Shown here: positions 1 through 36,100 of the stretch, piece after piece
Numbering within the stretch: the first letter of the stretch is position 1
How the letters are laid out: every line of letters starts with the position of its first letter
Origin: Candidatus Omnitrophota bacterium
GTDB taxonomy: Bacteria; Omnitrophota; Omnitrophia; Omnitrophales; JAQTRP01
Assembly (NCBI GenBank): GCA_028711765.1
Contig: JAQTRP010000001.1
Location: 1 to 50,171, forward strand
Length of the DNA: 50,171 nt
Reading direction: 5' to 3'
The notes under the pieces: model-generated
Database searches by the model: none
Seen by the model: only the letters and a program-made list of their open reading frames with translations
Told to the model about the DNA's origin: nothing
Program-made: the position numbers and the translations under genes

Positions 1-3000
1 ACTGAAAATTCAAAAAAAGGCACTAAGTCTTCTCCTTTGCTCTTTTTATCGAGAAAATCGCCACGCTTAAGAAGACTCAAAATCGGCAGCGATACTCCTT
101 TGCTGTCGCAAGCTTTGACAAGATTATCTATAAATTGTCGCGACGCGAATTTTTTATAAATATTTTCATAATCTGTAAAAAGAGAACCGAGCCTGTCGAG
201 GTCCTCTTTCAAACCGGCAGCGTAACCTTTGCTCTTTTTAATAGCGTCTTCAAGTACATCCTCGATACCCGGAAGGTGTAAGCGCGCGGCTTCAACCATT
301 TCCTGTACTTCCCGCCCAAGTTTAAGTATCGGATAAATCTGGCTATTAACTCCATCCGGTTGGCTCTCCATTGACTTCATCCACTCTTCTGTGTTCTCGC
401 GGTAGCCGGGCCTCAAAAAACCTACGGTTAAATGTTGCGCCGCATCTGCTATCGCAAATGTTTTGTAAGTTAGGTTCTCCGGGGCATAAGAATCAAAAAA
501 AACCGGCTGGGCAGAGGCAGAAGAAACTTCAAGGCTCTGTTTGAGGGCATTAAAACGCTTCTTTAGAGTACTTAAGCTGTTCTTTCCCTCCCTGTCTCTG
601 ATCGTTGAGCTCATTTGGTCGACTACCTTTTCAATTTCCAGCACCTTACTACAAAGTTCTCCCATAATCGAATTTGAGGTGCCAATGCAAGCTGCATTGC
701 CCCAACCTCCCAGGGTCTTGAAATAATTCGCAAAGCTATGGGTAACGTAAACAAGCCAGTTGTTAAGCTCCGACATATCTTTTACGCTTTCTTCAATCCT
801 CCTGACCTGCCTCACGCGCTCCATCCAATGTATACATTCGAGTATAAACCCGGCCTGCACGGCGAAAGAGCCGAGATCCTTAAAAAGTTCGGCGTGACTT
901 CTCTCGTTAAAACTATCGTGGTCCGGAAAGAAAAAGTTCTTGCCCGCACTGCCCCAGTTGTTCATCATAATAACGCCTATAACCTCACCTGAATGGCTTC
1001 TTAGGGGCAGATAAATAATCTCATTCGCCGGTTCGTCATATGCCGCGAAATCCTTATCAAGCTGATTGTAATCAAGTATTCCGTCAAAAAAATCGTTTTT
1101 CTCTTCTTTGACGAGCCGCTTGATCTCTCCTCTTTTCAGTATAACGAGAACACCGTCGCGAAAAACGACAATGCCGCGTTTTCTTAATTCCTCAAGCTGC
1201 CTCAAGGCTTTCTCGTCCCCCTTGAGGATCCTTAGAAACCAAGCCTTTTCATCCGTCAGGACACGCCCTTCCTTCCCGTGGCGACTCGGAAACTTATTCT
1301 GCTTCTCGCGCACAAATTCTCTGAATTTCAGAGCGCCGGCCTTTTTATCAACAACGTATTTACCGTCATCCTTATCAAGCACTACCGTATAAAAACTGAC
1401 CCCCGATATGCCTATAACCTTAATAAGATCACTCGTTACGGCCCCGACTTTCGTGGTCGCCATTTCCCAGTCAACGCTCTCCTCCTTCATAGAGACTGCG
1501 GCCTCGCAAAGCTTCCTGATAAGTTCACGTTCGGCCACGGCATTAACGGGATAGCTGGCGACTTTACCCGTAAATTTAGGGCCGAGGGCGTAATATGCGG
1601 CCGTCGGGTCAAGACGGAATTCCCACGCAACGCGGGGATGTTCTATGTGCCCCCCGGCTATAAGTCCATTGATGCTCTCCCGCGCCGCAATGGCAGAATA
1701 TCCGAAGCGGATTAAAATTTCGCTGCCCTTAGGCTTTTTCGCGATGATATTCCCGGCATTGGGGGTGAGGGTGCGCCTATCTGAGCTCTCCTCATTCCTT
1801 ACCGCCCTTACGACATTCTCAAATAAAGTAGTAAAGACAAGCGTATTGCGGTAAAACGGCTCTACCGTAAACTCATCAAATTCAAGGAATTCATTCTCAA
1901 TGCGGTAGCTGCAGGTAGCGACATTACCGTGGTCAAAAACCCGTCCGATCGCATCTCCCGGCCTGATAACTTCCGCTTTTATTTCAAACTCGCCCATTCC
2001 TTTAGGCCACCATCTAATGAGCTTGCGGTTCTCCCATGCCTTTTCATTCTTTTGACTGAGTTCCGCGGATGAAAGAACCGCCCTCCGCTTTGCCGCAAAT
2101 TCAGGGTCGTCAACGTTTACAAATTTGTTATTATTTATAAAAACTGTTAAAGGCTTGCTGTTTTTGCCTACCCAAACATTCAGTAACGGTTTCTCTTTTC
2201 CTTCCCCCGTTACATTGTCTTCCTCTATCCGGACTTGATAGATAACGCCGGCGGGCGGATCGTCTTTCATGGACGCCTTGAGACGGTGTATGGCGAGGTC
2301 TTCCCTCGGATTCCCGCCGCGGCGCCTGAAATCGCCTATAAAGAAAGCTCTAAGCTTTAAACGCTTCTCTGTTTCCGGATTAGCGGTGTTAAGCTTGGTT
2401 TCAAATTCGGCCATGACTTCATCGGGACTGAACGTCGATCTCTGTTCGATATAGCGGTATATCTTCCAAAGCTCCTCCCATTCGGCGATAAGATAGTTTT
2501 CAAGATCACTCGCGGGATTTCCACAGAAGGCATCGTAATTTCGTCTAGCCCTGTCTTTGAATTTAACGCAAAATTCCTTCCACTTCCTCAGCCATTCATC
2601 CGCCGAGGCAATAGATTTTTCTTTGGACGCGTCCTCTTTCTCGAAGCGATACCGAAGAAGAGAAATGAGGCTTTCTTCAAAAGTGGTTCTTAGGCCTTCG
2701 TCTTTGCCGTTAAGCTCATTGCGGAAGAAAACCCTCATAATATCACAGGCGGCGTCGACGGCTTTATGGCGGCTAAGCGCCCGGGCGGCTTCGCCACGCT
2801 CACCGGCATCTTTTGAATAAAGAAGGGTGCGCACAAGATCGGAGGTTTGTCTACTGTCTTCAGTGCCGAGACTATGCCCTGAGCCGGTTGAGGGATCTAT
2901 ATCTTTAAGGTCGCGGCCGAGATAAATAAGGCTCAAGAGCTTCTTCTCGTCCGGCCGGAGCTTGTTAGCCTCAATGTAACGACGGAAAGCCCTCTCCATC

Positions 3001-6000
3001 CCTTCTTGTGATGAATTGCATTCGGAGTAAAGGTGGTCAATGGCATCCACAACCCACTTTCTTTCTTGTCTATGCCAAACGTACCGAAAGGCCTCGCGGA
3101 CTTTGTTTACACGCTCAAGCACGTTTTCTTTCTCGCTATCCTTTCGGATGATAATATGCGCCACGGCATCGGCGAGAATTTGATTCTTTTCGGTTTCGGA
3201 AATTTCCTCTGAAAAGTCCGCGATTGTAACCAGCCTGCGGAGGGAAAAAAGATTCGTGGTATGAAACATTAAATGGCGAATAAGGAAAAGTATTTTACCC
3301 TTCGTGGTTTCATATTTCTGCATACTAAAATCAGAGAGAATCTCGCTTTTCTTATCGGCAATTAATCTGTCTTCCAGGGCAAGCAGGGAGAAGAAACCGA
3401 CACGTTTGTTTATTTTTTCAGAAGCATCTTCAAACAGTTCTTCGACGGAAAGACTTTGCGGTTGCAATATCCCCCTTTTCTTAAGAAGGTCGAAATATGC
3501 GCCCAGAACACTCGCGCCAAATCTGCTGCAGCCGATCTCCGGAATACCACCGAAATAAAAAACCGTTTTTGCGACTCCCTTAAGCAGATTGGCGTCGGAC
3601 AAAATCAGGTCAAACAATTCATAGGCGGCTCTGCTTCGCATGCCGGTGGCGCTCTCCGACATACCAACGAGCACCGGCAGCGTTGTTCTAGCAAGATTAG
3701 CATCATGAAACTTAACGAGCTCTTTAATTCCCGCTTCCCCTAAATCAAGAAGTAGCCCTATAAGACGTTTTTGCCTCTTGCGGATTTCCTTAATACGGTC
3801 TTCGGCAAGGCGTTCTTCAAAGGGGGAATCCGCATATTCGGCTTCATCCGTGCCGACCCTGTTATACCAAGCATTATCTCTTACCCTGCCGGCATCATTT
3901 TGGGCTGCTTCGCCCTTCCACTTCTCTACAAGGACAAAATATTCGATAATCTGAAGCGCAACCATAGAGGGCGGGAACAAGCGTAATTCTTCCCGTGCGG
4001 CTTCAAGCTTTAACGGCGGCGGCGTACCCGAAAGAATCACTATTAATTCGCTCGCCCTCTCCGTTTGAAACTGAGCAATGACATCCTTAAAAACACCGAT
4101 AATAATGTCCCTGTTGGTTTTAACAACCGGAGCCAAGCGGTAGAGGTGATGAATAAATTTATCATCGAAAAGACCGAGGTCTTTGCGTAATTTCCCGTAC
4201 TTACCGGCAAGTTTATAGATTACCTTGTTAATTACCTCGTCCGTGAGTAAACCTATTTCTCTGAGCAACTGATGAGCGCTTTCGATAATACGCTTCCTGT
4301 TAGCTTCAAGCCATGCCTTAAGCCTTTCGGGCGACATCCCGTTTTCTGCGAGAGCGCTCCACCCCCAGAAACGCAGGATGTACTTACCTGTACCGGGCTC
4401 TTCCTGAACGAAGATATCGTCCGTACCGTTAATAAGATGGTTACCGAGAAGAAGCCGAAAGAGATCGCTTTCAATAAATTGGGGACGGTCAACAAGATAT
4501 GGATTCCACTCGTCGTAGTTCATCCAGACAATCGGCGGTGAGGCAATACTGCCTCCCGGACACTCAACTGAAATCAACCTGTCTTTACAATCAACAAGTG
4601 GCTTTGTTTCTTCAAAACGCTTCCCACCCTGAAAAACGTAAGTCGTCGCATAAAGTGTCCCGGTCGTCTTGTTAAGCCATAACCTTATCGGACTGATATT
4701 GTTAAAACCCACCGCCTGAGCAATTTCATATATCGCCCTTTCTTTAAACACTCCAACTGCATCCGCCGGATTTAATACTTGTCTTAATTCGACAAGTTGA
4801 TTTCCTTTTTCAAAACACACTGTTTTATCGCCGTTTGTGGGCTCGCCTACAATTTGCCAGCCTTCCCCTATCAAATCCAACTCAAGCGGCAGCCCAACAG
4901 CTTCATCCGTCCTGCCCAGACTTCGCCCTCCATAAAAAACGGCGGATTGATAAATTGTTTCAAGCTCGGCAAACCGCGAAGGATTAAACTGTACCGGAAT
5001 CCCTTTTTCGCGCGCCAGTTCGGCTAAATTAATCGGCCCCAAATACTTCTCGGTCAGGAGAAGCTGCGGGTCGGCAACAGTCTCGGCCTCAAGCGGCGAA
5101 TCGTCGCCTCCTATGCGCTTCCGGTACAAAACTTCTTCCGCGAAATCGGGCTCGATTCGCGGCACTATAACAACGTATGATATTCCCCTTTCGCGAAGCC
5201 GCTTTTTTATGCCGTCCGCGTGGAAACCTCCGGTAACAAGGAAAGCGCGCTTATCCCTATCAAGCACCTTGCTGAAATTCCTTGCAAGCGTGCCGTCACG
5301 TTTCTTGGCAAATTTGTAGAAACGGAGCGCTTTTTGGAATAAAGTATTTGGCAATGTACCTGGTACCGGTCTCGCGGGTCCGGTACCAGGTACATTGCCA
5401 GATGTGCCAAGTACGCGGTCCAGAACATCAAGATCGGCGGGCGTGGCCTTAAGCTCGCAAATCCTCTTTACAGCCTGAAAAACCTCAAGTTCCTTAAGTA
5501 AAACCCTATCCTCATCGTTCCGGATAAGCTTTTCCGTGCAACGGTTTTTTACCTCGCTTATTTCACGGAAAAGCCGCGCCGCGTTAAGGCTGTTTTTGAG
5601 AGTAAGATACTCGATATAGCGGCTCAGGTTGGGGTAATTGAACAATTTAAGGGCGGAAACCTTAGGAATGGATTGCGGCTCTTCTCCTTTTTCTTTTAAG
5701 GAAAGAAGCCCGTCTTCGTGCTCCGGATATTTCCTAATAAAATTATCGATCTCTTGGTTAAGCTTCGTTTTGTTAATCCGCCCGTTGGCATAAATAAGAG
5801 TATAAAATGCGCGTAGCTCGTGAAAAGAACCTGTATCGATCTCGAGCTCCTCGGATATTTTTAAGAATTCGCCGAGGGGCTTTAGAAAATCTTTCGATGT
5901 TACGATAGTATCCTTTAATTTAAGCATCTCCCAAAGCTTCCCCGGCAGAATCTTCTTCGCCCGCTCGTTAAGACCGGCTTCTCTCTCGTTAAGTAGAGGC

Positions 6001-8065: not shown

Positions 8066-9637
8066 TTATGCCTGTGTATTCTCGAGTTCTTTTCTTATTT
8101 CCGGAAGCTTCGCAAGAACGGCCTTTGTTTCAGCTGGAAACTCGCGTAACAACTTGCGGTAAATAGACAAAGACTCTTTTTTCTTCCCCATAATCCAGTA
8201 CCGCCAGGCAAGATAACGCCGGGCAGAAAAAGAGTCGGGATGAATCTGGAGGGCGCGGCTGATGTGTTTAAGCGCCTCCTCATGTAGACTGCCGAAGTAA
8301 CCGGCCAGCCTGAGATGGGCCTCGAAAAAAGTTTCATCGTTGATTCCGAGCTGTTCTGAATAGTAATCGAACGGCTTTTCATTCCTCCACTGCCATTCCG
8401 AAAAAGGGGCGATCCACCCTTTTTCGGCAACGGTGCTCGCGAGCTTCCGCGCCATCATCGCCTGGCCGCGGATATTGGGACGGCAATTATCGTCGATGAG
8501 ATTAAAACCGACTAAACTGTTAGGCGAAGCTGATTCAAAAAGTCCGACGGTATCGATTAAGGGAACGCTATACTTCGTGCACAACTCTTCCAAAATATGA
8601 TTAATCGGGCGCGGCGCCCTGTTGTGAACTCCGTCATAGTCGACCGCCTCAAGGTAAAAAAGTCTCGCCTCGCCGTAGGAACCTAATGCCTCCGCCGCTT
8701 GTCCTTTCAGATACAAAGTATCGGCATAGCGCGGATCCACGCGCAACGGCCCTTCCAAAATCTCGATCGCCTCCGCAGGATTTCCCGTCTCAAGAAGGTT
8801 TCTCGCTTTATCAAGTTTTGACTTATAAGCTTCTTTTAGCTCATCAGCCAGATCGCGCGAGAAACAAGAATAACCGGGAGAAAAATCTCTGAAGTTCGAG
8901 ACGGGCTCAAAAAAAACAATCGAAATGCCGTTATCCTTTGCGAGGCGGATTATGGCGTCGATATTCTCGCGATAATAAGCAAGGCAATCTTTATATTCCG
9001 GACTCCCCACGGGCGAAAGCTCGTCCGGGCAATACCCGCGCGGCGTTATCTCGACCGTATCCTCTTGGGGGGCCCTTCCGCTCTCTTCCTTAATCCCGCG
9101 CCTAAGCCTATAGGCGAAGCCTTCGACAGACGATAGAAAATAACTCTTTCTAATAAGGTTTTTAAGGAGCGCTTTGATACTATGCCAATCTTTTTCTGCC
9201 TGAACGCGCCTATTGCCGGGAAAGAAATCATTGTGCCCGATATAAACCACGACAAGGTCGGGATGATAAGGAATAAGCTGCTTCAGAAGGCTCAAGCAAA
9301 AGGTACTTCCTTCGCCGGGCTGTCCGAAATTGACAATCTCGACTTTTTTACCGGGGAGAAAACTCTTCAAGTATTGATTGAGCCAAGTGCCGATTGTGGA
9401 CTGAGGGGCGTATTGCCAGCCGTGCATGGTGGATTCCCCGAGAAGGAAGATGCGATAATCGACGCCTTCTTTCGAAAGATTGATGCGGTTTTCGTCCACC
9501 GCTTGAGCGACGAATTTGCTTGTCCCCGGCTTCCTGACGATACGAAAAATGTATTCCAGCAAAGCGAACAAAAGGACGGTGCTTAATAAAATAATAAAAA
9601 ATGTCCGCAATAAGCTCTTGATCTGTGGAGTTGTCAT
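8066..9637 (-). CDS. SGNH/GDSL-type hydrolase fold protein with TPR-like helical repeats
   Basis: N-terminal TM helix. Block I-like FLLGESTMHG, block III-like VVVYIGHNDF, and TPR-like helical repeats (RYADTLYLKGQAAEALGSYGEARLFYLEAV; ALKHISRALQIHPDS...). Confidence 0.6.
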   Translation of the reverse strand: MTTPQIKSLLRTFFIILLSTVLLFALLEYIFRIVRKPGTSKFVAQAVDENRINLSKEGVDYRIFLLGESTMHGWQYAPQSTIGTWLNQYLKSFLPGKKVEIVNFGQPGEGSTFCLSLLKQLIPYHPDLVVVYIGHNDFFPGNRRVQAEKDWHSIKALLKNLIRKSYFLSSVEGFAYRLRRGIKEESGRAPQEDTVEITPRGYCPDELSPVGSPEYKDCLAYYRENIDAIIRLAKDNGISIVFFEPVSNFRDFSPGYSCFSRDLADELKEAYKSKLDKARNLLETGNPAEAIEILEGPLRVDPRYADTLYLKGQAAEALGSYGEARLFYLEAVDYDGVHNRAPRPINHILEELCTKYSVPLIDTVGLFESASPNSLVGFNLIDDNCRPNIRGQAMMARKLASTVAEKGWIAPFSEWQWRNEKPFDYYSEQLGINDETFFEAHLRLAGYFGSLHEEALKHISRALQIHPDSFSARRYLAWRYWIMGKKKESLSIYRKLLREFPAETKAVLAKLPEIRKELENTQA

Positions 9638-9658
9638 GACAATCTCTTAAAGCGCCGG

Positions 9659-11200
9659 TTAAGATTGGGGAATTGGAATGATAAAATCCGTGTTGGGAAT
9701 AACCGTGGCGGGCGAGTAACGACCTAATTTTTTCCACGCCGCGGAAAGGGCATTGTCTATAGATTCGAATGGGTGGTAAAAAGTGCCCTGCGTCGCCCGC
9801 TTGGCATTGGGCGATACGCAAAAAAAATCAACGCCTTTCGGCATCTTTCTTTTTAATCCAAACTGATATTCGACTTCTTTTATGGCGAAGGAGCTGTTCA
9901 CAGCCATATTCTCGCCCGTGCCGCCGGGGAGTTCCCCGCAAAGTATAACAACCCCGCCCGCAGAAACCGCGCAAGTTGCGGGGGCCGTGGACTTGGAAAA
10001 CTGGTAAAGATCGAGTTTGCCCTGTGTGTCGTTTGCGACAATAACGAGAGGAGTCCTCTTCGCTGCTACCTCGCAAACCTTGCGGGCTGTCTTGACGCCC
10101 TCCCGGTGGGCTTTAACAATATCGCCGGCAACAAACCTAGCCGGCTTTCCTTCGCCGTTAAGCACAACATTAAACATCACTATCTTCTTGAGCATCCGAG
10201 CCGCCTCTTCTATGTTCAGCCTCAGGATATTGTCATCCACTTTGCCGATATCGGCGCTCGGATGGGCCTGTAAAAGATGGTTCTGGACAGTAGTCAACCT
10301 CGATGTCGCGCCCGGCAGCACGGCCTTGGCGCCGCCTGAATAGCCGGCAAGAGGATGGGGTTTGATCTGCCCTAGCGCCACAACCCAATCGGCCTCGGCG
10401 ACGCGCCGGTCCATCCAAATCTCCGTTCCGCCGTTCGAGATAGAGGACATCAAAACTCTGAGGAGCGGGCCCCCGCTTGAGTTACGGGAAAGGTGATCAA
10501 AATCCAGAAATGCCACGTCACGCAGCGCCGAGAGAATAGAGCGCGGCGCGTCAAGCAAAGCGGAAGAAGTCTCCCAGCCCATGACCTTCGCAAAATATTT
10601 ATCCGGAGGGCGGGTCCGGCCCATTTTTATAAAAGAATTTTTATCCGCACCATTCACATTAACGAACTGGCAGGTCCTCTCGATCTCGGGCCCCAATCCC
10701 AATTTCTCAACCGGCAGCACCGCGTGATTCCCGTTGCCGATGATGAACGTAATGTTCTTCGCGGAATGCTTTTTCTGATCGGCGAGGAAACGAAGCAGGG
10801 CCTTGACCATGGAAGGCTGATCGAACGACCGCGTGGAATCGCTTATGCAAACTGCGATCTTATCTTCCGGCTTAATATCTTTAAACAACTCATCCATCCC
10901 TATCGGTTCGTTCAATGCCTCGTCCATGGCGCGATTCACATCCGGCAAGGCGTCATAGGAATTGGGCTTGAGCACCTGAACGCTGTCACCAAGATAGGGA
11001 AGAACGAGGGGACGGTTTCCGAAGGCAATCTCTATGCCGGAAGACGCGCTCGGGGCGGGAGAGGCAACGGCTATACCAAGCGGGGCGAAACCCTTTCTCC
11101 CGAATAATTTAAAAAATGAATCCGCAAGGAAAGAACCGGCAAAAACAACGCCAATCGCCCCAAAAAACTTTTTTAAGAAATCCCGCCGGTTAATCTTCAT
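9659..11200 (-). CDS. LarA-like (lactate racemase N-terminal domain, DUF2088) protein with a twin-arginine signal
   Basis: MKINRRDFLKKFFGAIGVVFAGSF is a Tat-type signal (RRDFLK). LGQIKPHPLAGYSGGAKAVLPG resembles the LarA-family H..aGfSGG.K..PG motif. ATG start. Confidence 0.6.
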   Translation of the reverse strand: MKINRRDFLKKFFGAIGVVFAGSFLADSFFKLFGRKGFAPLGIAVASPAPSASSGIEIAFGNRPLVLPYLGDSVQVLKPNSYDALPDVNRAMDEALNEPIGMDELFKDIKPEDKIAVCISDSTRSFDQPSMVKALLRFLADQKKHSAKNITFIIGNGNHAVLPVEKLGLGPEIERTCQFVNVNGADKNSFIKMGRTRPPDKYFAKVMGWETSSALLDAPRSILSALRDVAFLDFDHLSRNSSGGPLLRVLMSSISNGGTEIWMDRRVAEADWVVALGQIKPHPLAGYSGGAKAVLPGATSRLTTVQNHLLQAHPSADIGKVDDNILRLNIEEAARMLKKIVMFNVVLNGEGKPARFVAGDIVKAHREGVKTARKVCEVAAKRTPLVIVANDTQGKLDLYQFSKSTAPATCAVSAGGVVILCGELPGGTGENMAVNSSFAIKEVEYQFGLKRKMPKGVDFFCVSPNAKRATQGTFYHPFESIDNALSAAWKKLGRYSPATVIPNTDFIIPIPQS

Positions 11201-24525: not shown

Positions 24526-25839
24526 CTACAAATTGCTCAGCTGTGTCCGGAAGGCCATATTGAGGAAGACCATTAGCTCCTCGACGCTGAAATTTACCGA
24601 AGTACGGCGCTCCACCTTCGCGGTGGCGTATCCGAGGTTATTTATGTAATGGCCGAGACGCTCCTTTATGCTACGTTTTGAGTAGAAGTTGTCCCAGATC
24701 CACGTGAGGCCTTTGTCCAATTCTTCGATAGTCATTCCCTTAGGTTTGAAAATTACGTTTTGGCCGTTTCTTAAAGATAGGTCCTCCGCGAAAATCCGTC
24801 CTTCCTTCTCGAGTATAGTATAGAGCTTTGACCCTTCGCGCGGGGTAAGGCAGGAAAAAAGCGCGAGGTCGACTTTGTTCTCCTCACAAAATTTAAGTGT
24901 CTTTTCAAAAATACCTGCGTCGTCGTGGTCAAACCCGAACATAAAAGAACCGTATATCGCGATGCCGGCGTCGTGCATGTTCTTTATCCAGCGGGAATAA
25001 TTCTCCGCTCGCGCCCATCCCTTGTTTACCTCCTCGAGGTTCTCCTGCTTAATCGATTCTATCCCGGCAAAAAGAAACATACAGCCGGATTCCTTCGCGA
25101 GCCTGAGGAGTTCAAGGTCGTCCGCAAAGTTAAGCGAAAATTGCCCGCCCCACGCGGCTTTTATGGGGGCAATTGCCTTAAACAATTCCTTCGCGTAACT
25201 TTTTTTCGCCGCGATATTGTCGTCCACGAAGAAAATTATCTTATCATGCAACTCTTCGACTTGCCGGACAACATCCTCTACCGGACGGGTGCGGTATTTG
25301 CTGCCGTAAAATTCCGTCACGGAGCAATAATCGCAGGCATAAGGGCAACCGCGCGTCGTCTCAATGTGATAACATTCCGGATCCTGAAACAGCTTTCTGG
25401 AAATAAACGGCACTTCCTTCATATCGATCAGGCGATCGGCTTTATAGCGCTTTTTAAGGGCGCCTTTTCTGAGGTCTTCGATGATAGAACCCCAAATAGC
25501 CTCACCTTCGCCTATACCGACGGAATCGACGTGGGCCTCGAATTTTTCGGGGTGGAGCGAAGGATAGATGCCGCCGATGATTACCTTTGTGCCGCGCCGC
25601 CGGAACTCGTCCGCGATTTCGATGGCGCGCGGAATAAGGTGCATCATCACCGTAATGGCAACGAGATCCACCTTCTCGTCGAAATTAATGGGGTTTATAT
25701 TCTCATCGATGATTTCGCGTTCGATATCGCCGGGCGTAAGCGCCGCCAAGAGCGGCAGCGCGAGCGGCGTCGCGACGAGATAACGGACAGAACCTTGCCC
25801 CCTGCCCAGCTTTTTAGGATTTACGAATAGGATTTTCAT
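24526..25839 (-). CDS. B12-binding-domain radical SAM enzyme
   Basis: N-terminal B12-binding-like domain (MKILFVNP...VDLVAITVMM), then ETTRGCPYACDYCSV (CxxxCxxC). Confidence 0.85.
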   Translation of the reverse strand: MKILFVNPKKLGRGQGSVRYLVATPLALPLLAALTPGDIEREIIDENINPINFDEKVDLVAITVMMHLIPRAIEIADEFRRRGTKVIIGGIYPSLHPEKFEAHVDSVGIGEGEAIWGSIIEDLRKGALKKRYKADRLIDMKEVPFISRKLFQDPECYHIETTRGCPYACDYCSVTEFYGSKYRTRPVEDVVRQVEELHDKIIFFVDDNIAAKKSYAKELFKAIAPIKAAWGGQFSLNFADDLELLRLAKESGCMFLFAGIESIKQENLEEVNKGWARAENYSRWIKNMHDAGIAIYGSFMFGFDHDDAGIFEKTLKFCEENKVDLALFSCLTPREGSKLYTILEKEGRIFAEDLSLRNGQNVIFKPKGMTIEELDKGLTWIWDNFYSKRSIKERLGHYINNLGYATAKVERRTSVNFSVEELMVFLNMAFRTQLSNL

Positions 25840-27029: not shown

Positions 27030-27137
27030 CAGTGGTCAATCGCCAGTTGTCAGTCATCAGTAAAAGATTAAGCGGTAAGAAGTAAGGAAAAGCGCAACCG
27101 GCTAACCGGCTCACTGGCTTACCGGCTAACCAATTAA
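27030..27137. repeat. Degenerate heptamer array followed by an octamer array at the 3' end of the giant ORF
   Basis: Plus strand 27030..27085: CAGTGGT CAATCGC CAGTTGT CAGTCAT CAGTAAA AGATTAA GCGGTAA GAAGTAA. Plus strand 27098..27137: CCGGCTAA CCGGCTCA CTGGCTTA CCGGCTAA CCAATTAA. The last unit contains the TAA stop (27136..27134). Confidence 0.85.
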
Positions 27138-30100
27138 GCCGCGCGCGCTATGGCCGCCGCGCTGTCGCGTATGGCCTCGAGGCGGTCAAGATCTACTTCT
27201 ACGATGTAACAATTATTCTCAACTCGTATCGACTTTACAATATCGGGAAACTTGCCGAGAACGGCCTCGGCATCAAAAGCGACTCTAAGCAAAAGCGCAA
27301 AGAAAGGATTCACGGAAGCCCTTGTTTGCTTTGCCATATCAAAACTGAAAAACAAGGTAAGTTTGTCTTTGGCCCTTCGAGCCACGATCTCGGTCAATTT
27401 TTTGGCATCCTCAGTTTCAAGTGACTTCATAACAAAGACCGCGTTATTTATACCTTTGGCTTCCTCGAGCCATTTCGCGATGTCCCTCTTGGTTGCAACG
27501 TCAACTCTCCTAATTATGCGCAAGTTCTTCCCCAGAACAAACCCGGATTTAACTTCTCTCAGCCACACCGGAATATTGCTTACATCGTCGCTATCGCCGG
27601 AAATCACAAGCCTGCTGTCCTGGCCTAGCTTCAAGGCCAAGGCCTGTATCAACTGCTTCTGCGCAACCTTATCAAGACCTGTCGTAATAGAATTGAAATC
27701 AATAAAGAAAAATGCCGGCGTGCCGGATGGTTTTAATTGATCAAGCGGTACATCAAGAAGGTTGACCGACAGACCCAACGCCTCAGATAGATCGCCGGGC
27801 TCCATGCCGTACGCTTCCATCCACGCGGCGGGCCTTACCATCTTTTCCGGCGTGCCGCTCGCGTAAATAAGCGAGGCGTCGGTGAGTATTTTAGCGGCAG
27901 ATTGTATAAACGCACCCGTTTTGTCGGGTACTATTTTCTGCCCCTCCGGCGCTATCGCATTGTAATCCGCGACCAACCCTTCAATTTCTCTTACCGTTTC
28001 CTCATTAATGCCTGCTTCTAATATGCGGCATAGTAAAGCGCGGCTGTCACTATATTCCAAAGTTTTCTTTCTAATCCATCCCCGGACAAGGCTCTCAACT
28101 CTATCGTGTTTGAGACTTTCCCAATTTGCCAAAACGCTAACGACATCAGCCGCCGCCGGCTCTTTGATTCCTATATCAGCTCCCGGCAAAACTTCTTTTA
28201 GCATGTAATAAGCGATAACATCCGCCGCCGTCTTTTCCATCCCGAGCGACCGCCCCGCTGGGCTAAGGATTCCGGGCTTCGACGAACTAGTCAGTTTCGT
28301 CAAGTCAATAGTGATTGTAATATTTCCGTCAGGACCTTCACCAGCTCCCAGCATATAATCCACGTTGGGTCTTGCGCCATAAATTTGTCCGAGGTATTTT
28401 TGATAAAAGCCAAAGGCGTCCTGATAGGCGGAAATCGTGGCCTTCGTCATTCCGTATTCCTTTAATTCCCCGAAAAACACACCCATAAGGAATGAACCCA
28501 ACCCTCCGTCTCTTGCATCTTTCTTTACAAAAAGCCATTTAAGGTTACCTGTATTGTTCCTGCGGTCGATTTCGATCAAACAGCAGCCCTGTGTTTCTCC
28601 TTGAGAATCAACATATACGAAGAGTTCGTCAAAAAATTTAAGCTCAGGATTACTTGGGTCCTCGCGGCTAAACGAATTCACCGATTCAAGAGCAGAATCT
28701 TCGATGGCAAGGCCTTGAAGAAGCTTTTTGGCCTCGGCATATCCTACGCCTGCTTTTTCCGCGGCATCCAAAAACTGCCGGAAATTTAATGCCGCACCTT
28801 TATCCTCGTGAGCATATTTTGTCCCTTGACGCACTGCCTCTTGCAGCTCGGTTTTAAACCCCAGCGAGGCGCCGGGCGTGATTTGCGCAGCGTTTCTTTC
28901 ATCGATAAAAGCTTTATACGTTTTCAGCTTGGCAAGTAACTCTTTTTCTTTCGAATCTGTGATTAATCCCTGAACGCCGGCCTGCTTGATCGCAGCCTCA
29001 TAGAAGCTTCTTGTTGCTTCGTTCGGAACTAAGTACGCTTCATGAAAAGATGCGGGTATGTCTTTCCCAAAGAAGTCCTCAAGTTTACCATCTTCGCTGT
29101 TACGCCTTAAAACAACATATAGCGGCCCAAATGGCCCTGCTGAGGTAGGCGTTTGTGTTGTTCCCTTATTTAAAGTACTGTAATCTACCACACCGCTCTT
29201 GCCCGTTTTTATACGGCCGTCAAGCATTATAGACAATAAATTAACAACGCCGCCTTTCTCAAGGCTTACACCATGCGCCAAAATACCCTCCCTGTCTCCC
29301 AGCCTAAGCAGATTTTCTTCTGGGCCACCCTCGCGTAAGTCGGGCAACAACTCAACTTTGCTAAAATCCACCTTGTAAACTGTTCCGTCAATCACTTGAA
29401 GAACATTACCAACCATACCTGCCCTCGAAGGTTCATGTTCTTTAAACCATTCAAAAAGATCGCTTTTTTGCTCCGGGCTAAGCGTTGCTATCTGTGAGAC
29501 AAATTCACCATTTCTCCTAAGCGCGCCTAAATTACGCGCAAACAATTCGGCAAGATCAAAGTCGAGCTTTTCCATAAACCCATCTTTTACAAATTTCTCC
29601 CCCAGAGCGCGGCCTTCCAACACAGCCTTGGCTTGAAGTTCTTTTGCGGCGCGCTCTTCGGTTTCCCTAAGCCTTCTAACGGCTTCACTATAGGCCGCCT
29701 CGTCAAACCTAAGCGGTTTCTGTACCGCATTTAATAAATCGGCAAGGTCTTCTCCTGATGGTTCATCGGCTACCGTCAAGTAAGCGCCATTTTCGGTCAA
29801 TTCGGCTTTTGCGTCATCCGCCAGATCCTCCAGGCGCAACAATCTTTCCACTAAAACATCCCTTTGCAAAACTAAATTCCGGCCCATATTACCTGCCGCG
29901 GGTTTTTCGCCTTGCAAATATTCTATTTGGTCATTAAGACCGCTGAGTTGGTTTTTGATTTTCTGCGTCTCTATTTCAGCGGTATCGAGTAAAGCTTCCA
30001 GGTGGATTTCGGCAGCCTCTTCCGTTTTCAGCGAAGGAACCTCTTGCACGCTATATCTCACAGCCTCGCCGGGCTTTGGTTCTATTCCTTCCGCAAATCT

Positions 30101-33100
30101 TTTTTGATTAGCAACAATTTCTTCTTGCTCCTTCACCTCTTTTCTAATATTAATCAATTCCGAAAGCTGGCGAGATATGTCATTCTTAAGACTGCCCGTA
30201 AGAACTATAGCGCGCGCCATCATTCTGGAGTAAGGATCCGACACCTTCGCGTCGTAACTCAACATCGGAACCTCGCCAATCAAGGCATTCGCCAAAACAA
30301 TGTGTTCAGCAACCCTGCCGAGCAATCGGGCCTCTCTCTTATTTATAAGATTATCTCCCGATGCAGCATTGTAAGACGCGACCCATGACTGCATAAACAT
30401 ATAAGCAAGCCTCGCGCAAGCTTCAACGTCGCCGCTATTTATAAGATTCCACTCGCTCTCGCTTACAACAATAGTTTCATAACCTTTCGCCGGATCTATA
30501 AATCTGACCGGCCCCTTAATGCCGGGTGTGGTTTTATCCGGGACAGTAAATAATTCCGGATACCGATAGCGCCTGACGGCGTCTTTCCCGAGTCTCGGCC
30601 CTACTGCTTCTTCCGCCGCATTTTTCACGACTGGCGGCGGCCCTTCAATCCAACGGCCTCCAAGTTTCGCGAGGGCGATTATTCCCTGCGCTAAATCTCT
30701 ATCAACGTCTCCCTCCCAGCTATAATTGCCCTCGAACTCCTCCCCCAGCGAGGCGCCGGCAGGAGCAGCAGGTATACCAGCCGCTTCCGCGGCTTTGGCC
30801 AATATACTGTCGGGCATAATAATATTGGGCAAAGGTGTAGCAGCAATTGTTATCGGCTCACCAACGGAAGCTTTCTTAATAAGTTCCTTGTGCATCTTGC
30901 CGGCCGGCCCAACCCATATCCACTTTGACCAAGTCCCGTCTTTCAAATTGATAAGCTCTATGCCAATAAATTCCCCTAATACTTGCACGTTTTTGTAATA
31001 GATATCCTTAAAATCATCGGTTCCTATATTAATAAGCCCGCAAAACTCGCCCCGATTTCTATCAGAGCTTATGATTTCGAAGGCCTTCTCGACAAGTTTC
31101 TGACCGTCAACGTTCGCCTTAAGGTTCCCAAGAACGTCCGGCCCGGCCTTTCCTGTTCTTGCGAGATAATTGCGGTATTCCTCAAGAATCTGACGCGTGG
31201 CCCTAAAAGCAAGAGATTCATCCAAAAGCGGCGGCATACCAGGGCTTTTGATGTTGTTTACAACATGAACCAACTCGTGATAGATCTTTTGCGCTATCCA
31301 ATAAACCTTATCCGCTCTTGAACCTTCTTCTTTCTCAAAAGCGTCTAATCCTACAACAACAAGTTTGACACCCCGGGGCACCATGGCAAAACTGTTGTCG
31401 TCTAACCCCCTCACGAAAAGTACGCTTGCGCCGTCCGCCTCATCTCCAAGATTGAATTTCTTCTTTAGTAAGTTGTGAGCGTCCCGGACCATTCCTCTGA
31501 ATTCAGGGTTATTTGAAACTCCTACTGACCTTTCCACCATCTCCCTTGTGATATTCGGCACTTTGTATCCGGTAATATTCATCAGGAAATCAATCGGATA
31601 TATACGTGTATCTATGGAAGGAGGTAACCTTTCACTAGAAAATGCGCTGCCATTTTCTAACCGCTCATCCATAATCCTGTCCTCGAGCAGCTTTTTAAGA
31701 TCAGGGTCTTTCACTTTTCTGCGGGCGCCTTCGAGAGCGGCTATTATTTGCCGGCTGGTTCCTTTGGGAACGAGAACTGAATATTCTCCGGTTGGGCCTC
31801 TTATAATTCTAATAGACCCGGTTTGTTCTTGAGCAACGCTCTGCCCCCCAACGCCCAAGACGAAAGCCGTTCCTAATGCACCTAAGCTAACAAAAAATTG
31901 CCTCCTGTTAAAACCTTTACCAGCCTCAGCCTGTGCGGTCCCCAGCGAGGCGCCCTCCCCGCCAATGGGCACGGTTTTCTGCAGCCAGCCCCGTACAAGA
32001 TTTATCTGATCTTGTTTAAGGTTCGTATTCTCATTTTCAAGAGCATCATTTAAAAATTCCGATAGTTTGCTATCATCAGGAAAGGCCGAACGAAAAGCCT
32101 TACCGATACCATCCAGAATTTGCCTTCTGCTTCTCTTAAGGTCATTCCTGTCTTCATAGTAAAGAAACAGCCTGGACAACAAGAAGTCTTTGCTTCTCTG
32201 ACGCGATCCTCTAAGTAATCCCAAATCGACAACAACAAGATCGGGATTTTCGGGGTCTCTCTGTTTTCCACGAAACATAATGTTGTTAGGATGAACATCG
32301 TTAAAGTATTCTTCCCTCCCCTTGGCTTTACTGTTCTGTATTCCGAGTTGAATGTAGGTTGAAACTACCGTTTCTCTTTCTTTGGGACTTAACGGTTGAA
32401 TTTTAACGGCATCTTTTACCGTTAACCCGTCAATCCACTCTTCTACATAGCTGTTCCTGTAAGGCGAACCGAATCGTGGTATAAATTTAGTCCACTGTAA
32501 AACTTGCAGTGATGCTATTTCATTATCTTCAATCGCGCCTTCCTTGAAAGCGAACAAAAGCTTAAGCTCTCCATCCGGACTTAACGCTTTCTCATAGATC
32601 TTCCTGTATTGATCTTTTATCCTTAGCCGAATTTTAAATACGTGTTTCTCGGTTGACGAAATAAAATACTTCATCTCAACTTTCTCAAGGTGCTCAGGTA
32701 AGGCGCCCGAAATGCCGTACACATTCTCTAAATTTCTGCTAAACTTAAATGCGTCCCCAAATAAATCTTGCACTTTATCAATAATTTCTTCCTTACGGCC
32801 TCCAACGTAACTATCCCCTGCCTCATTAACCCACGCGTCTTCTTCCAAACTCAAAGGTAACTCAACCGCCCCCAGCGAGCGGCCGGAGAGAGCAGTGGTG
32901 ATTCTAATCAAATCTTCTCGTGTTGCGCCTATGTTGCTACTCTGTAACTGACTGAGCAGTTCTTTTTTAACGGCCCCTGCTAATGCCGGAGAATATTCCA
33001 TGCCTTTTGCTTCTGCCTCTCTCATAACGTAATTTTCCACAACGTCCGGCTGCTCAAATATATAAACCATAACCTGAGCAGTTGACATACCTTGTATCCC

Positions 33101-36100
33101 GATAAAGTTCCCCATAGGCAAAAGCTGGGGCGTATTTTCCTTGCTGCCGAAAACCTTTGCCGCAGCCTCCTCAATTGCCCCCGAATCCTGGGGCACTATC
33201 TTCATCGCCTTTATCGACCCAAACATTGCCACCGCTGTTTCGGTCGCAAAAGGCTTTTTATCCACTGCTATTTTTACTGCAGTCGTTTCGGACGGGATAA
33301 TGGTAACTTTAGTGGGTAATTCAGGGCTGGTGGGCGTAGCGGTAACCCCAGCCCCTTTCGGCTCAACGCCGATCTCTATCCATCGAAAACCCGCTTTGAA
33401 CCGATCAAAAACAAACGTGCTAATAACGGTAGCGACGGTATCTTTTTCGCGGGAGGATCTCTCAATCTTAAAGCGCGGCCTGCCTTCTTCATCGGAATCG
33501 TAATATAAAAGTACCGAATACGCGGTGCTTGCCTCAAAATCCGCTTTTGTCTTTCCCACGGCTCCCAAAATACATTCCTCGATAAAATCGCTAAAACCTT
33601 CCGCGCCGACATAGCTCTTATACTTTTGATTAACGAGCCGTTCAACCTCTTGCCGAATTCCTTCATCTGAATCTATCGCGTAAAAAATAATCGGATTTTC
33701 CTCCAGCGGCACTTTCATAAAATCTTCCTCGCCTTTCTCCTTATCTCTAAGTATACTTTTCAGTGCCGAGACCTTTGCTTTGAGTTCTTTTATCTTGTCT
33801 TCATATTCCTTTTCTTTTCCTGAAATATCTCCGACGTTATTATCCAGAATAAATTGAAGTGTATCTATTTCCCTTTCGCTTCCGGTTATCAGATTCATCA
33901 GAACTTCATCCGGCTCATGCGTAAGCGTGGCGGGAGCAGATGCCGGAGACGTAACACCGGAAGGCGCTAACGACACATCCGTCTCAGCGGTTAGCTTTTT
34001 TCCAGTCGCTGAAGGAAGCGGCAAACCGCGAAGGCCTTCCATATCCAAATGCCCTTCCAAATCTTCTTTGGAAATGCCATGTCTCCGGGCTGCTTTACTA
34101 ATAGCCTCCTCTAAATAATTTTTTGATACGGGACCGCCGGTCCTGGTTTTCTCGGCTATCGCATCTTTAAGGGCTTCCGCGGCTTTCTCCACTTTCGCCC
34201 CCAGTGAAGCACCCTTGATCGCTTCCATATCCTTATTCGTCATAGCCCGGCGGGTCCTTGCTTTTTTCGCTTCCAATTCCTTTATAACCGCCTCGGCAGC
34301 TTCTTTCATTCCCAGCGACCGGCCTGCCGGTGCAGCCGAGGCGAGGTTTGCAACAAGTGCGGTAAGGAGCGGCAGGTCTTCATCGCGAAGCCCCCTATCT
34401 TTCAGGGTTTCCCTTATGACTTTCTCAACGTTGCTGTACATCTCTTGGTCTGCCGGGCTCATCTTGTCGTACGCCACTTTAGATACAGCGCTTAAATTGA
34501 CTCCCTTCATTTGGCCTACCTTGTCGACAAGCCCTTTTATATCTTCTTCCCCAAGACCCAACTGGCCCAATCGCTCCCTCGCGACAACTGTTGTGCCTTC
34601 GAGAAGCGCTGTTCTTCCCGCCGGAGCTTGGGCAATTGCCGCTTTGACTAAATTCCTGAAACCATCTTCCGTAATTCCCTTCTCTGAAAGCGCCCCCGAG
34701 AGATAACCCCACACCTCGGGCCACGTTCTAATCAATTCTTCCAAAGCCTTGCGGAATTTTTCATCTTCTCCGGCCCGCTTATTTAAAAATTCAATTATGC
34801 CCATCCCTAAGTTCTGCTTAGCGGCGTCATTTAACTGGCCCAAAATGTATTCGGCCGGATCACCGCTCGTAAGCAAGGCATCGTCGGCGAAGAGAATCAT
34901 CATAGCCTTTATAAATTCCTCGTGTCCTTTCTCGCCGACTGCCGCAAGCACGGGAACGGCTATCGTGTAACGCGAAAGTTCGCGGTCGATAATGTCGAAA
35001 AGGTCGTCCACGTAACGGGTGTAGCGGCCCGCCTCGGCAATCTTGCCCTGCTTCATAGCCTCATCGATAATGCGGACCCGCCATGTAACGAGGCTGTTGT
35101 GGAGATGGGCGTAGTCGGAGCGCGGCGCGCGCCGTGCGAACTCGGCTTCGAGTTTGTCGGCGTTCAGTGTATATTCCCCGCGCATAACGCGGAGATAGCT
35201 TGAGTCGTCAAAGTTCGAGAAAGAGGGAGAGACGATGATGTATGAGATATTGTTCTCTCTGAAATGGCGGGTTATGCCCTGCTTGTGGAATCCTCCCGTT
35301 ACCAGAATGGCGGCCTTGGCCTTTTCGGAGCTTACTAAGTCCTCGAAATTATTATAAATTACTTCTTCGCGCTTGATTGCCAACTCATAGAAACGCTCCG
35401 CCCACTTGAGGTCGAGTTTAAATTGTGTCTTCTCGCCGAACTTCGAGAGGAAATCATTGAAAACTTTGATATCGTAAAGGCCGCGGGACTTTTCGTATTC
35501 CGCGAAATCATCCCTTGCAAGCTCAAGCTTGGCGATATTCTCAAGAACTGAGAGCCTCTCGTATAAAGAATCGAGGGTTTTATCGTCTTCGCCCTTAAAC
35601 ATAGAGGACTTGATTTCTTTGGAGACGGACTTTATCTCGCTAAAAAGCTCGGTGCCTTGCATTTCGCGGATATCGAGCGGAAAGTCGAAGACGTCTTTCA
35701 TTTCGCTCTGGGGGCCTTCTTCAAGACCGAGCTTTCTGAGAACCTCAAAAAGCTCTCTCGCATAGGAAAACCTTGAGGCGCGGCCGATTTGGTAGGACTG
35801 TTTTATCCTTGCAAGCTCGCGCTGTTTTTCCTTGTGGGTCCTGTCCTTAGCGAAAAATTGCGAGAGGGCCGCCTCGGCTTTATCGATAAACTGTCTGAAG
35901 CGCTTAGAATCGCTCCCATCGGCCTTTTCTTCGGCGTTCACATTCTGGATAAGAGAAGCAAGCTTGGGATACCTAGCAAGGAAGAGTTTTTTCTCAACCG
36001 ACTTATCTCTTATGACGCAGATCAGATCTATAAGCGAAATTTTGCCTTCCTTATAGTTACTAAGAGCGGCGTCGAATTGTTTCAACTCTCCGGAGTAAAT

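Follow-up and report, generated by a model that had tools for sequence, protein, structure and literature searches.

A reiterated G-(A/R)-S-L-G motif at the module borders of a giant Omnitrophota protein: a candidate processing site and recombination junction

The inter-effector sites of MARTX toxins are of the small-Leu-small type, lie in unstructured linkers and are cut by the MARTX protease domain, which releases the effectors (PMC2900308). In CdiA, the VENN peptide marks a precise cleavage site and also a proposed recombination junction, with module homology starting or stopping at the VENN-encoding sequence (PMC9424206, PMC3150448). For the MARTX effector RRSP, an endopeptidase of the TIKI family, an essential catalytic set of 2His/2Glu residues has been described (E3900-x-H3902, E3930 and H4030; PMC6254334). 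Regarding the giant proteins of Omnitrophota, it is an open question whether they are single chains or many cut products, and published work on these proteins names the lack of cleavage points as a hindrance to further analysis. Here, we analyzed 50,171 nucleotides from a Candidatus Omnitrophota bacterium (assembly GCA_028711765.1, contig JAQTRP010000001.1, positions 1 to 50,171 of the forward strand; hereafter the window), in which a giant open reading frame (ORF) carries the pentapeptide motif G-(A/R)-S-L-G eight times at the borders of unrelated modules. We discuss this motif as a candidate processing site that may at the same time serve as an in-frame recombination junction.

Eight junction motifs in the giant ORF and their recurrence in relatives

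A regular-expression scan of the protein encoded by the giant ORF (Table 1) for G[AR][SA]LG returned exactly eight matches, and a preliminary description made from the sequence alone, which had listed the eight peptides with their nucleotide and residue coordinates, proved accurate for each of them. Based on the composition of the protein, 0.045 matches would be expected (0.018 for G[AR]SLG), and composition, which the same description had considered as a possible source of the motif, thus fails to explain it. A six-frame scan of the window revealed one further match only, the GRSLG of a second, paralogous giant ORF. An independent repeat search recovered the repeat family formed by the 15-mers of the sites and detected no tandem or internal repeats beyond it. 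In two respects, the preliminary description was overstated: the strings around sites 1 and 8, which had been called near-identical, show an identity of 11/17, and the modules between the sites, which had been called recognisable, gave a Pfam match of any kind in two cases only. It may be added that sites 1 and 2 enclose a mini-module of 37 residues, which finds a parallel in a close motif pair of the relative L084, where residues 649-671 read ARSLG...GQSLG with just 13 residues between the two motifs.

Table 1 Features of the two giant ORFs and of the adjoining PilZ gene in the window (positions in nucleotides of the window)
Feature	Residues (aa)	Position	Strand	Coding sequence or remark
Giant ORF: signal peptide, conserved N-terminal domain, eight junction motifs, unrelated cargo modules	3210 in total	27134..36766	-	
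Basic and hydrophobic N-terminal segment ending in WSAP; Sec-type signal peptide or anchor		36617..36766	-	read from the sequence
Family-defining N-terminal domain, putative TIKI-superfamily hydrolase	~75-530	35177..36544	-	
Site 1, GRSLG	815-819	34310..34324	-	GGCCGGTCGCTGGGA
Site 2, GASLG	852-856	34199..34213	-	GGTGCTTCACTGGGG
Site 3, GRSLG	1295-1299	32870..32884	-	GGCCGCTCGCTGGGG
ABC1 atypical-kinase-like match, module 4		32159..32446	-	weak: 22.0 bits, just below the 22.9-bit Pfam cut-off
Site 4, GASLG	1605-1609	31940..31954	-	GGCGCCTCGCTGGGG
Twin-arginine-type signal peptide directly after site 4		31829..31939	-	FNRRQFFVSLGALGTAFVLGVGGQSVAQ
HELVH (HExxH) motif, module 5; possible zinc-peptidase cargo		31265..31279	-	
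Site 5, GASLG	2004-2008	30743..30757	-	GGCGCCTCGCTGGGG
Site 6, GRALG (Ala in place of Ser)	2385-2389	29600..29614	-	GGCCGCGCTCTGGGG
Site 7, GASLG	2632-2636	28859..28873	-	GGCGCCTCGCTGGGG
GNAT acetyltransferase domain, module 8		28388..28645	-	Pfam match
Site 8, GRSLG	2838-2842	28241..28255	-	GGGCGGTCGCTCGGG
C-terminal tail		27137..27196	-	...VDLDRLEAIRDSAAAIARAA; fits the family-wide C-terminus ending in [SA]-[LVA]
Second, paralogous giant ORF	2185 in database copy P0003	3..6554	-	last codon outside the window
GRSLG of the second giant ORF, right behind the N-terminal domain	543-547	4914..4928	-	
GHSLG of the second giant	1226-1230	2865..2879	-	
HTH_17-PilZ gene		36763..37380	-	4 nt shared with the giant ORF, at the start codon of the latter

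Relatives of the giant protein were gathered by an exhaustive profile search and two contig scans, and the motif-bearing subfamily corresponds to its nearest relatives by N-terminal domain. The set considered here consists of nine proteins, namely the two giants of the window and seven relatives: L084 (ARSLG, GQSLG and five GASLG), P0116 (seven [GA][AS]SLG), P0109 (five sites), L082 of Candidatus Omnitrophus fodinae (four sites), P0096 (three sites), L005 (two sites, the same as in P0124) and L004 (one site, the same as in P0099). The sequences of L084, L004, L005 and L082 are truncated where the respective locus or contig ends. Altogether, the nine proteins contain 39 sites of the [GA]-x-S-L-G type where ~2.5 are expected; in 229 other giants of the family, 63 such sites were counted where 48 are expected. 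Across the 39 sites, Leu and Gly are invariant (39/39 each) and Ser is found at 37/39, with G or A at the first position and A, R, Q or S before Ser in 34/39. Ser is replaced by Ala at two sites, the GRALG of the giant ORF and an ANALG of P0096, the latter of which aligns with an AASLG of P0116.

Homologous modules in these relatives respect the motif, which identifies it as a conserved inter-module junction. In an alignment of six of the proteins, the first site appears as an invariant S-L-G that ends the conserved N-terminal region. Residues 3421-3803 of P0116 align with residues 2156-2538 of P0096, the motif being the start and the C-terminus the end of the aligned segment in both proteins. 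Moreover, a module of ~650 residues is shared by L084 (760-1420, first cargo), L004 (736-1397, first cargo) and P0116 (2039-2682, third cargo). The preliminary description had considered that homologs might lack the motif at module borders; the aligned homologs keep it there.

When private recurring k-mers were sought in ~100 other giants, no general linker motif was found. One giant, P0111 (3081 aa), contains a different reiterated peptide, RDTAMQMP, which occurs 5-6 times and may be either a lineage-specific punctuation or an ordinary repeat. A GASLG in the giant that lies beside P0001 (locus L001) was discarded as irrelevant, being the ordinary GGKGA[NS]LGE motif of the PPDK_N family consensus.

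At the nucleotide level, the earlier claim that sites 4, 5 and 7 share an identical 15-mer was borne out, with GGCGCCTCGCTGGGG occurring exactly three times in the window, at 28859, 30743 and 31940, and nowhere else in it. Given the codon usage of the ORF, the probability that at least three of the four GASLG sites share any one 15-mer is ~3e-6. CTG, which accounts for 13% of the Leu codons in the ORF, is nevertheless used at 7/8 sites, and TCG, which accounts for 21% of its Ser codons, at 6/7. The flanks of the sites are unrelated at the DNA level, and window shuffles never attained the observed number of near-matches to the 15-mer. A comparable situation is found in L084, where GGCGCGTCGCTGGGG codes for every GASLG site (5/5) in the midst of unrelated flanks (P ~3e-12), and this 15-mer differs from that of the window solely at the Ala wobble position.

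In contrast, P0116, which lies at a locus of 37% GC, encodes its seven sites with varied codons, and L082 likewise keeps the peptide with many different codons, the variety in these two proteins including AGY serines. The second giant ORF of the window encodes its motifs with codons other than those of GGCGCCTCGCTGGGG, and in the giant ORF itself 5/8 sites depart from the 15-mer but keep the peptide. The DNA of the motif is thus conserved beyond the need of the peptide in the giant ORF (3/4 GASLG) and in L084 (5/5), but not in P0116, L082 or the second giant. As P0116 and L082 keep the peptide while the codons vary, we conclude that the peptide is under selection. Both the peptide and the DNA level carry signal. 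We read the nucleotide identity as the trace of an in-frame gain, loss or exchange of modules at the junction, for which the recombination proposed at the VENN-encoding sequence of cdiA is the best precedent; selection on codons or mRNA is a possible source as well. Other roles of the sites were rejected: a Chi-like or genome-wide function of the 15-mer, given that the 9-mer TCGCTGGGG was found in the window only inside the giant ORF with no copies elsewhere; internal promoters or terminators, for which scans stayed at background without any excess; and known RNA motifs, for which Rfam and tRNA searches were empty.

An iterated profile search revealed that the modules of the giant ORF are unrelated to one another and to 308 family proteins. 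Furthermore, an NCBIfam scan of its segments added nothing to the Pfam matches, a word-index homolog search with modules 4-6 found nothing, and comparison by hhalign showed no homology between its C-terminal module and the conserved C-terminal module of the subfamily. Module 5 (31265..31939, minus strand) stands out by a twin-arginine (Tat)-type signal peptide, composed of FNRRQFF, a hydrophobic stretch and SVAQ, by an HELVH motif with a downstream Glu, and by identical 15-mers on both sides; judged by these features, it looks like a captured gene for an exported zinc peptidase. Among 230 family proteins, only the giant ORF has an internal Tat-type signal peptide, and internal signal peptides as general markers of module starts were dropped, as the giant ORF is alone in having an internal Tat-like signal plus a signal-peptide-like tail. 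For the GC content at third codon positions (GC3), the N-terminal domain has a value of 0.576 and the last module one of 0.531, while cargo modules 3-8 range over 0.43-0.49 and thereby fall below all 22 other genes of the window (0.489-0.665). Because GC3 differs between N-terminal domain and cargo, the giant gene can be regarded as compositionally mosaic.

The N-terminal domain and the C-termini of the family

The N-terminal ~530 residues are common to the giant ORF, to the second giant ORF, whose N-terminal domain is paralogous with 32% identity, and to P0001. When the N-terminal 814 aa were used as the query, a homolog search returned one protein, and the subfamily profile returned two; the exhaustive profile search with the N-terminal domain gave 9271 cluster representatives (50% identity clusters). 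The best-scoring 150 of these 9271 are mostly 1000-7700 residues long and carry the domain at the N-terminus. In genomes that represent species, matches were obtained at 453 loci, 80 of which were listed, almost all of them with the label Omnitrophota. Judged by these profile matches, the family is very large and found almost only in Omnitrophota. The family proteins examined begin with a Sec-type signal peptide, which was read from the sequence and is clear and of the A-x-A type in the relatives.

Invariant residues of the N-terminal domain are Q100, D101, H103, E130, R466, G491, G492 and H494, which belong to the elements Q-D-x-H, E-G, R and G-G-F-H, with a conservation across 149 sequences of 0.99 for D101 and of 1.00 for each of H103, E130 and H494. 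AlphaFold models revealed an alpha/beta core that is split by a helical insertion of ~290 aa, and in the model of the N-terminal domain (predicted local distance difference test, pLDDT, 80.5) the expected strands adjoin the conserved residues. Pfam and NCBIfam models gave no match to the native N-terminal domain, and among native sequences 1/15 matched PF04187 (ChaN, Tiki superfamily) at E = 0.12. Once the insertion had been removed, 7/16 cores matched PF04187 with a best E of 9.4e-5, one tabulated score being 11.7 bits and therefore under the 27.7-bit cut-off, and no other family was matched more than once. The native domain apparently escapes Pfam and NCBIfam because the insertion splits the TIKI/ChaN-like core.

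The pattern D101-x-H103, E130 and H494 fits the 2His/2Glu set of RRSP, including the spacing from H103 to E130, which is 27 compared with 28 in RRSP. Foldseek searches with two models of the N-terminal domain returned no significant match and were dominated by coiled-coil matches to the helical insertion, although the TIKI-fold protein HopBA1 (5t09) recurred among this coiled-coil noise with a probability of 0.25-0.28. A PDB profile search with the domain found nothing. Taken together, the residue pattern and the matches of the insertion-free cores suggest that the N-terminal domain is likely a TIKI-superfamily-like hydrolase.

At the opposite end of the proteins, 102/125 family giants terminate in [SA]-[LVAMI], among which SL occurs 44 times, RSL 13 times and RAL 5 times. 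The consensus of the family C-terminus reads ...P-I-D-x3-I-x-E-[AW]-x2-A-x2-A-[LV]-[RKQT]-S-L, and this conserved C-terminus is located on a likewise conserved C-terminal domain of ~260 aa in ~70% of the giants (123/174). As a cut after Leu would leave modules with -[AR]-S-L or -R-A-L ends that resemble these family C-termini, the Leu-Gly bond of the junction motif is the suspected scissile bond. Regarding the content of the main family, one giant (L094 7110..17537, plus strand) has phosphoglucomutase/phosphomannomutase domains and a cupin near the C-terminus, the latter with weak matches to Cupin_2 and to the mannose-6-phosphate isomerase cupin below the Pfam cut-offs, and thus places cytoplasm-type sugar enzymes behind a signal peptide.

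Processing, recombination and competing explanations

The explanation that we favor, and in which we place moderate confidence as a whole, is that the motif is a processing site between cargo modules that doubles as an in-frame recombination junction. The giant modular protein would be exported by Sec, with G-(A/R)-S-L-G as its reiterated inter-module junction. At the protein level, the motif would represent a selected small-Leu-small recognition site for proteolytic processing, and a cut, most likely between Leu and Gly, would release unrelated cargo including the kinase-like module, the module with Tat signal and HExxH motif, the GNAT module and a number of orphan modules. As prime candidate for the protease we regard the putative TIKI-superfamily-like hydrolase at the N-terminus, because no other domain is shared by every motif-bearing protein. 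The HExxH modules were rejected as processing protease, being present in the giant ORF and L084 but absent from P0116, P0096 and P0109. At the DNA level, if modules were swapped or lost between directly repeated 15-mers, the reading frame would be kept and the junctions would be homogenised. A more far-reaching version, which we put forward tentatively and regard as rather doubtful, is that the giants of the subfamily are true bacterial polyproteins, in which an N-terminal TIKI-like protease cuts at the reiterated [GA]-x-S-L|G and frees a series of unrelated and fast-evolving cargo enzymes outside the cytoplasm, while the same 15-nt junction acts as the substrate of in-frame cassette exchange.

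Among the three readings proposed in the preliminary description, namely a protease site in a polyprotein, a cis-autoproteolytic x-Ser junction and a DNA-level junction for module shuffling, the protease site is the best supported, by evidence of an indirect kind: the peptide is conserved with synonymous variation and stands at module boundaries, it has a small-Leu-small form, site 4 is followed by a Tat-type signal, and a conserved candidate hydrolase domain is present. Several points nevertheless weigh against processing and recombination at the motif. In most members of the family, the N-terminal domain is present while internal motifs are lacking, so that the general function of the domain must be broader than cutting at such sites. 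The C-termini of the subfamily end in AA, not in SL, and the C-terminal domain of the main family is absent from them, both of which weaken the argument that cut modules would mimic family C-termini. The TIKI assignment rests on sub-threshold Pfam matches to spliced constructs together with residue patterns, and the Tat signal has no obvious use inside a Sec-exported protein, where it possibly survives from a gene that was captured. On the DNA side, 15 nt are short for homologous recombination, and neither silent cassettes nor extra copies of the 15-mer were found in the window.

That most members do without internal motifs is also what would be expected if the motif were an uncleaved linker or docking element, either a short selected peptide to which, for example, a chaperone, an export factor or the N-terminal domain binds, or a hinge, in a protein that stays a single working chain. 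The strong conservation of the peptide at boundaries agrees with such a role, and so does the family-wide conserved C-terminus, as ends of the -S-L type could be binding elements and not cleavage products. We nevertheless consider a permanent linker unlikely: five residues with an invariant Leu-Gly and a preference for small residues would sooner be expected at a protease site than in a hinge, the Tat-type signal directly behind site 4 could function only with its N-terminus free, and the formal match to the small-Leu-small sites of MARTX is close. Cleavage could alternatively proceed in cis, with an N-O acyl shift at x|Ser like that of SEA, GPS and Nup98 domains and of Ntn hydrolases, and the presence of Ser at 37/39 sites with small residues before it would fit this chemistry. 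However, Ala takes the place of Ser in GRALG and ANALG, the residues that are invariant are Leu and Gly, not Ser, and the conserved fold that such a reaction requires around the bond finds no counterpart in flanks that are unrelated at the protein as well as the DNA level; this second reading of the preliminary description is therefore very improbable.

The third reading, in which the 15-mer came first as a recombination or insertion site (a cassette adaptor or target-site duplication) and the peptide is merely its translation, draws on identical 15-mers with sharply unrelated flanks in two genomes, on module 5 with the same 15-mer at either border, on homologous modules at different ranks and on a cargo GC3 that is atypical for the genome. 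These observations argue for a DNA-level contribution to the junctions. As the whole explanation, a DNA element would have to account for P0116 and L082, which keep the peptide with many codons including AGY serines, for the five sites of the giant ORF that differ from the 15-mer yet keep the peptide, and for the second window giant with its other codons, while no copies occur outside the giant ORF in the window; we regard it as quite unlikely. The remaining possibility, namely that the motif arose by chance or from the composition of a protein rich in Gly, Ala and Leu, can point to a moderate abundance of G, A, S and L and to nothing else. It is refuted by eight matches against 0.045 expected, by the window shuffles and by the recurrence of the motif in relatives, and its probability is negligible.

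For the question of single chains or cut products, the junction supplies a candidate cleavage motif that is concrete and conserved and from which products can be predicted, along with a candidate protease whose catalytic residues can be named, and both the motif and the protease candidate are open to metaproteomics or heterologous expression. The analysis also points to a family of >9,000 clusters with an N-terminal domain for which Pfam and NCBIfam gave no matching model. The codon-identical junctions offer a tractable case for in-frame gain and loss of modules in modular giant genes, and if the polyprotein reading is true, one motif would govern both the maturation and the evolution of module content.

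Gene neighbourhood and comparison with known systems

The neighbourhood of the giant ORF in the window is that of an ordinary bacterial chromosome, with ABC transporters, PEPCK, a DAC-domain (diadenylate cyclase-type) protein and radical SAM enzymes. An OmpA-LysM protein is encoded downstream of the giant ORF and an HTH-PilZ protein upstream; pilZ genes have been reported to adjoin giant genes of Omnitrophota, there in a downstream position (West-Roberts et al.). The second giant ORF has two junction motifs only and two cargo modules, neither of which gave a Pfam match. A gene for a B12-binding radical SAM protein was observed twice near a giant locus, at 24526..25839 (minus strand) of the window and at 8337..9854 (minus strand) of L001, the locus of P0001.

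Among described systems, viral polyproteins with a cis-encoded protease share with the giant ORF the single ORF, the unrelated units and the reiterated short motif, whereas the giant ORF belongs to a cellular chromosome, with bacterial genes around it, and has no replication or capsid modules. The N-terminal domain resembles the TIKI/TraB/PrgY/ChaN/erythromycin-esterase superfamily, which includes RRSP, in its [D/E]-x-H motif, a Glu ~27 residues further on and a G-x-x-H motif, and differs in the ~290 aa helical insertion that splits its modelled alpha/beta core.

The VENN junction of CdiA and the PxxxxDPxGL junction of Rhs proteins are likewise short conserved peptides at the border of a variable module. 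CdiA and Rhs proteins have one junction each, while that of the giant ORF is reiterated up to eight times. In these systems, the toxin is C-terminal, its immunity gene lies next to it, and delivery is by two-partner or type VI secretion; in the window, neither an immunity-like gene nor orphan or silent cassettes were seen.

The likeness to MARTX toxins covers a giant secreted protein with several unrelated modules, sites of the small-Leu-small type and a module content that varies among relatives. At the sequence level, this type of site is recognized in the S-L-G, invariant or nearly so, of 39 sites at module borders. In MARTX toxins, a protease of the same chain cuts at several places, a role for which the giant ORF has a candidate domain. 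It differs from MARTX toxins in that Pfam and NCBIfam scans found in its segments none of the glycine-rich RTX-type repeats that lie towards both termini of MARTX toxins and no Peptidase_C80 cysteine protease domain (CPD), which in these toxins is activated by InsP6, in its N-terminal Sec-type signal in place of a C-terminal type I signal, in its candidate protease, which would be the N-terminal TIKI-like domain, in the fixed five-residue form of the site and in its occurrence in the phylum Omnitrophota. The giant protein thus resembles MARTX toxins and CdiA VENN proteins in its logic and is a member of neither family.

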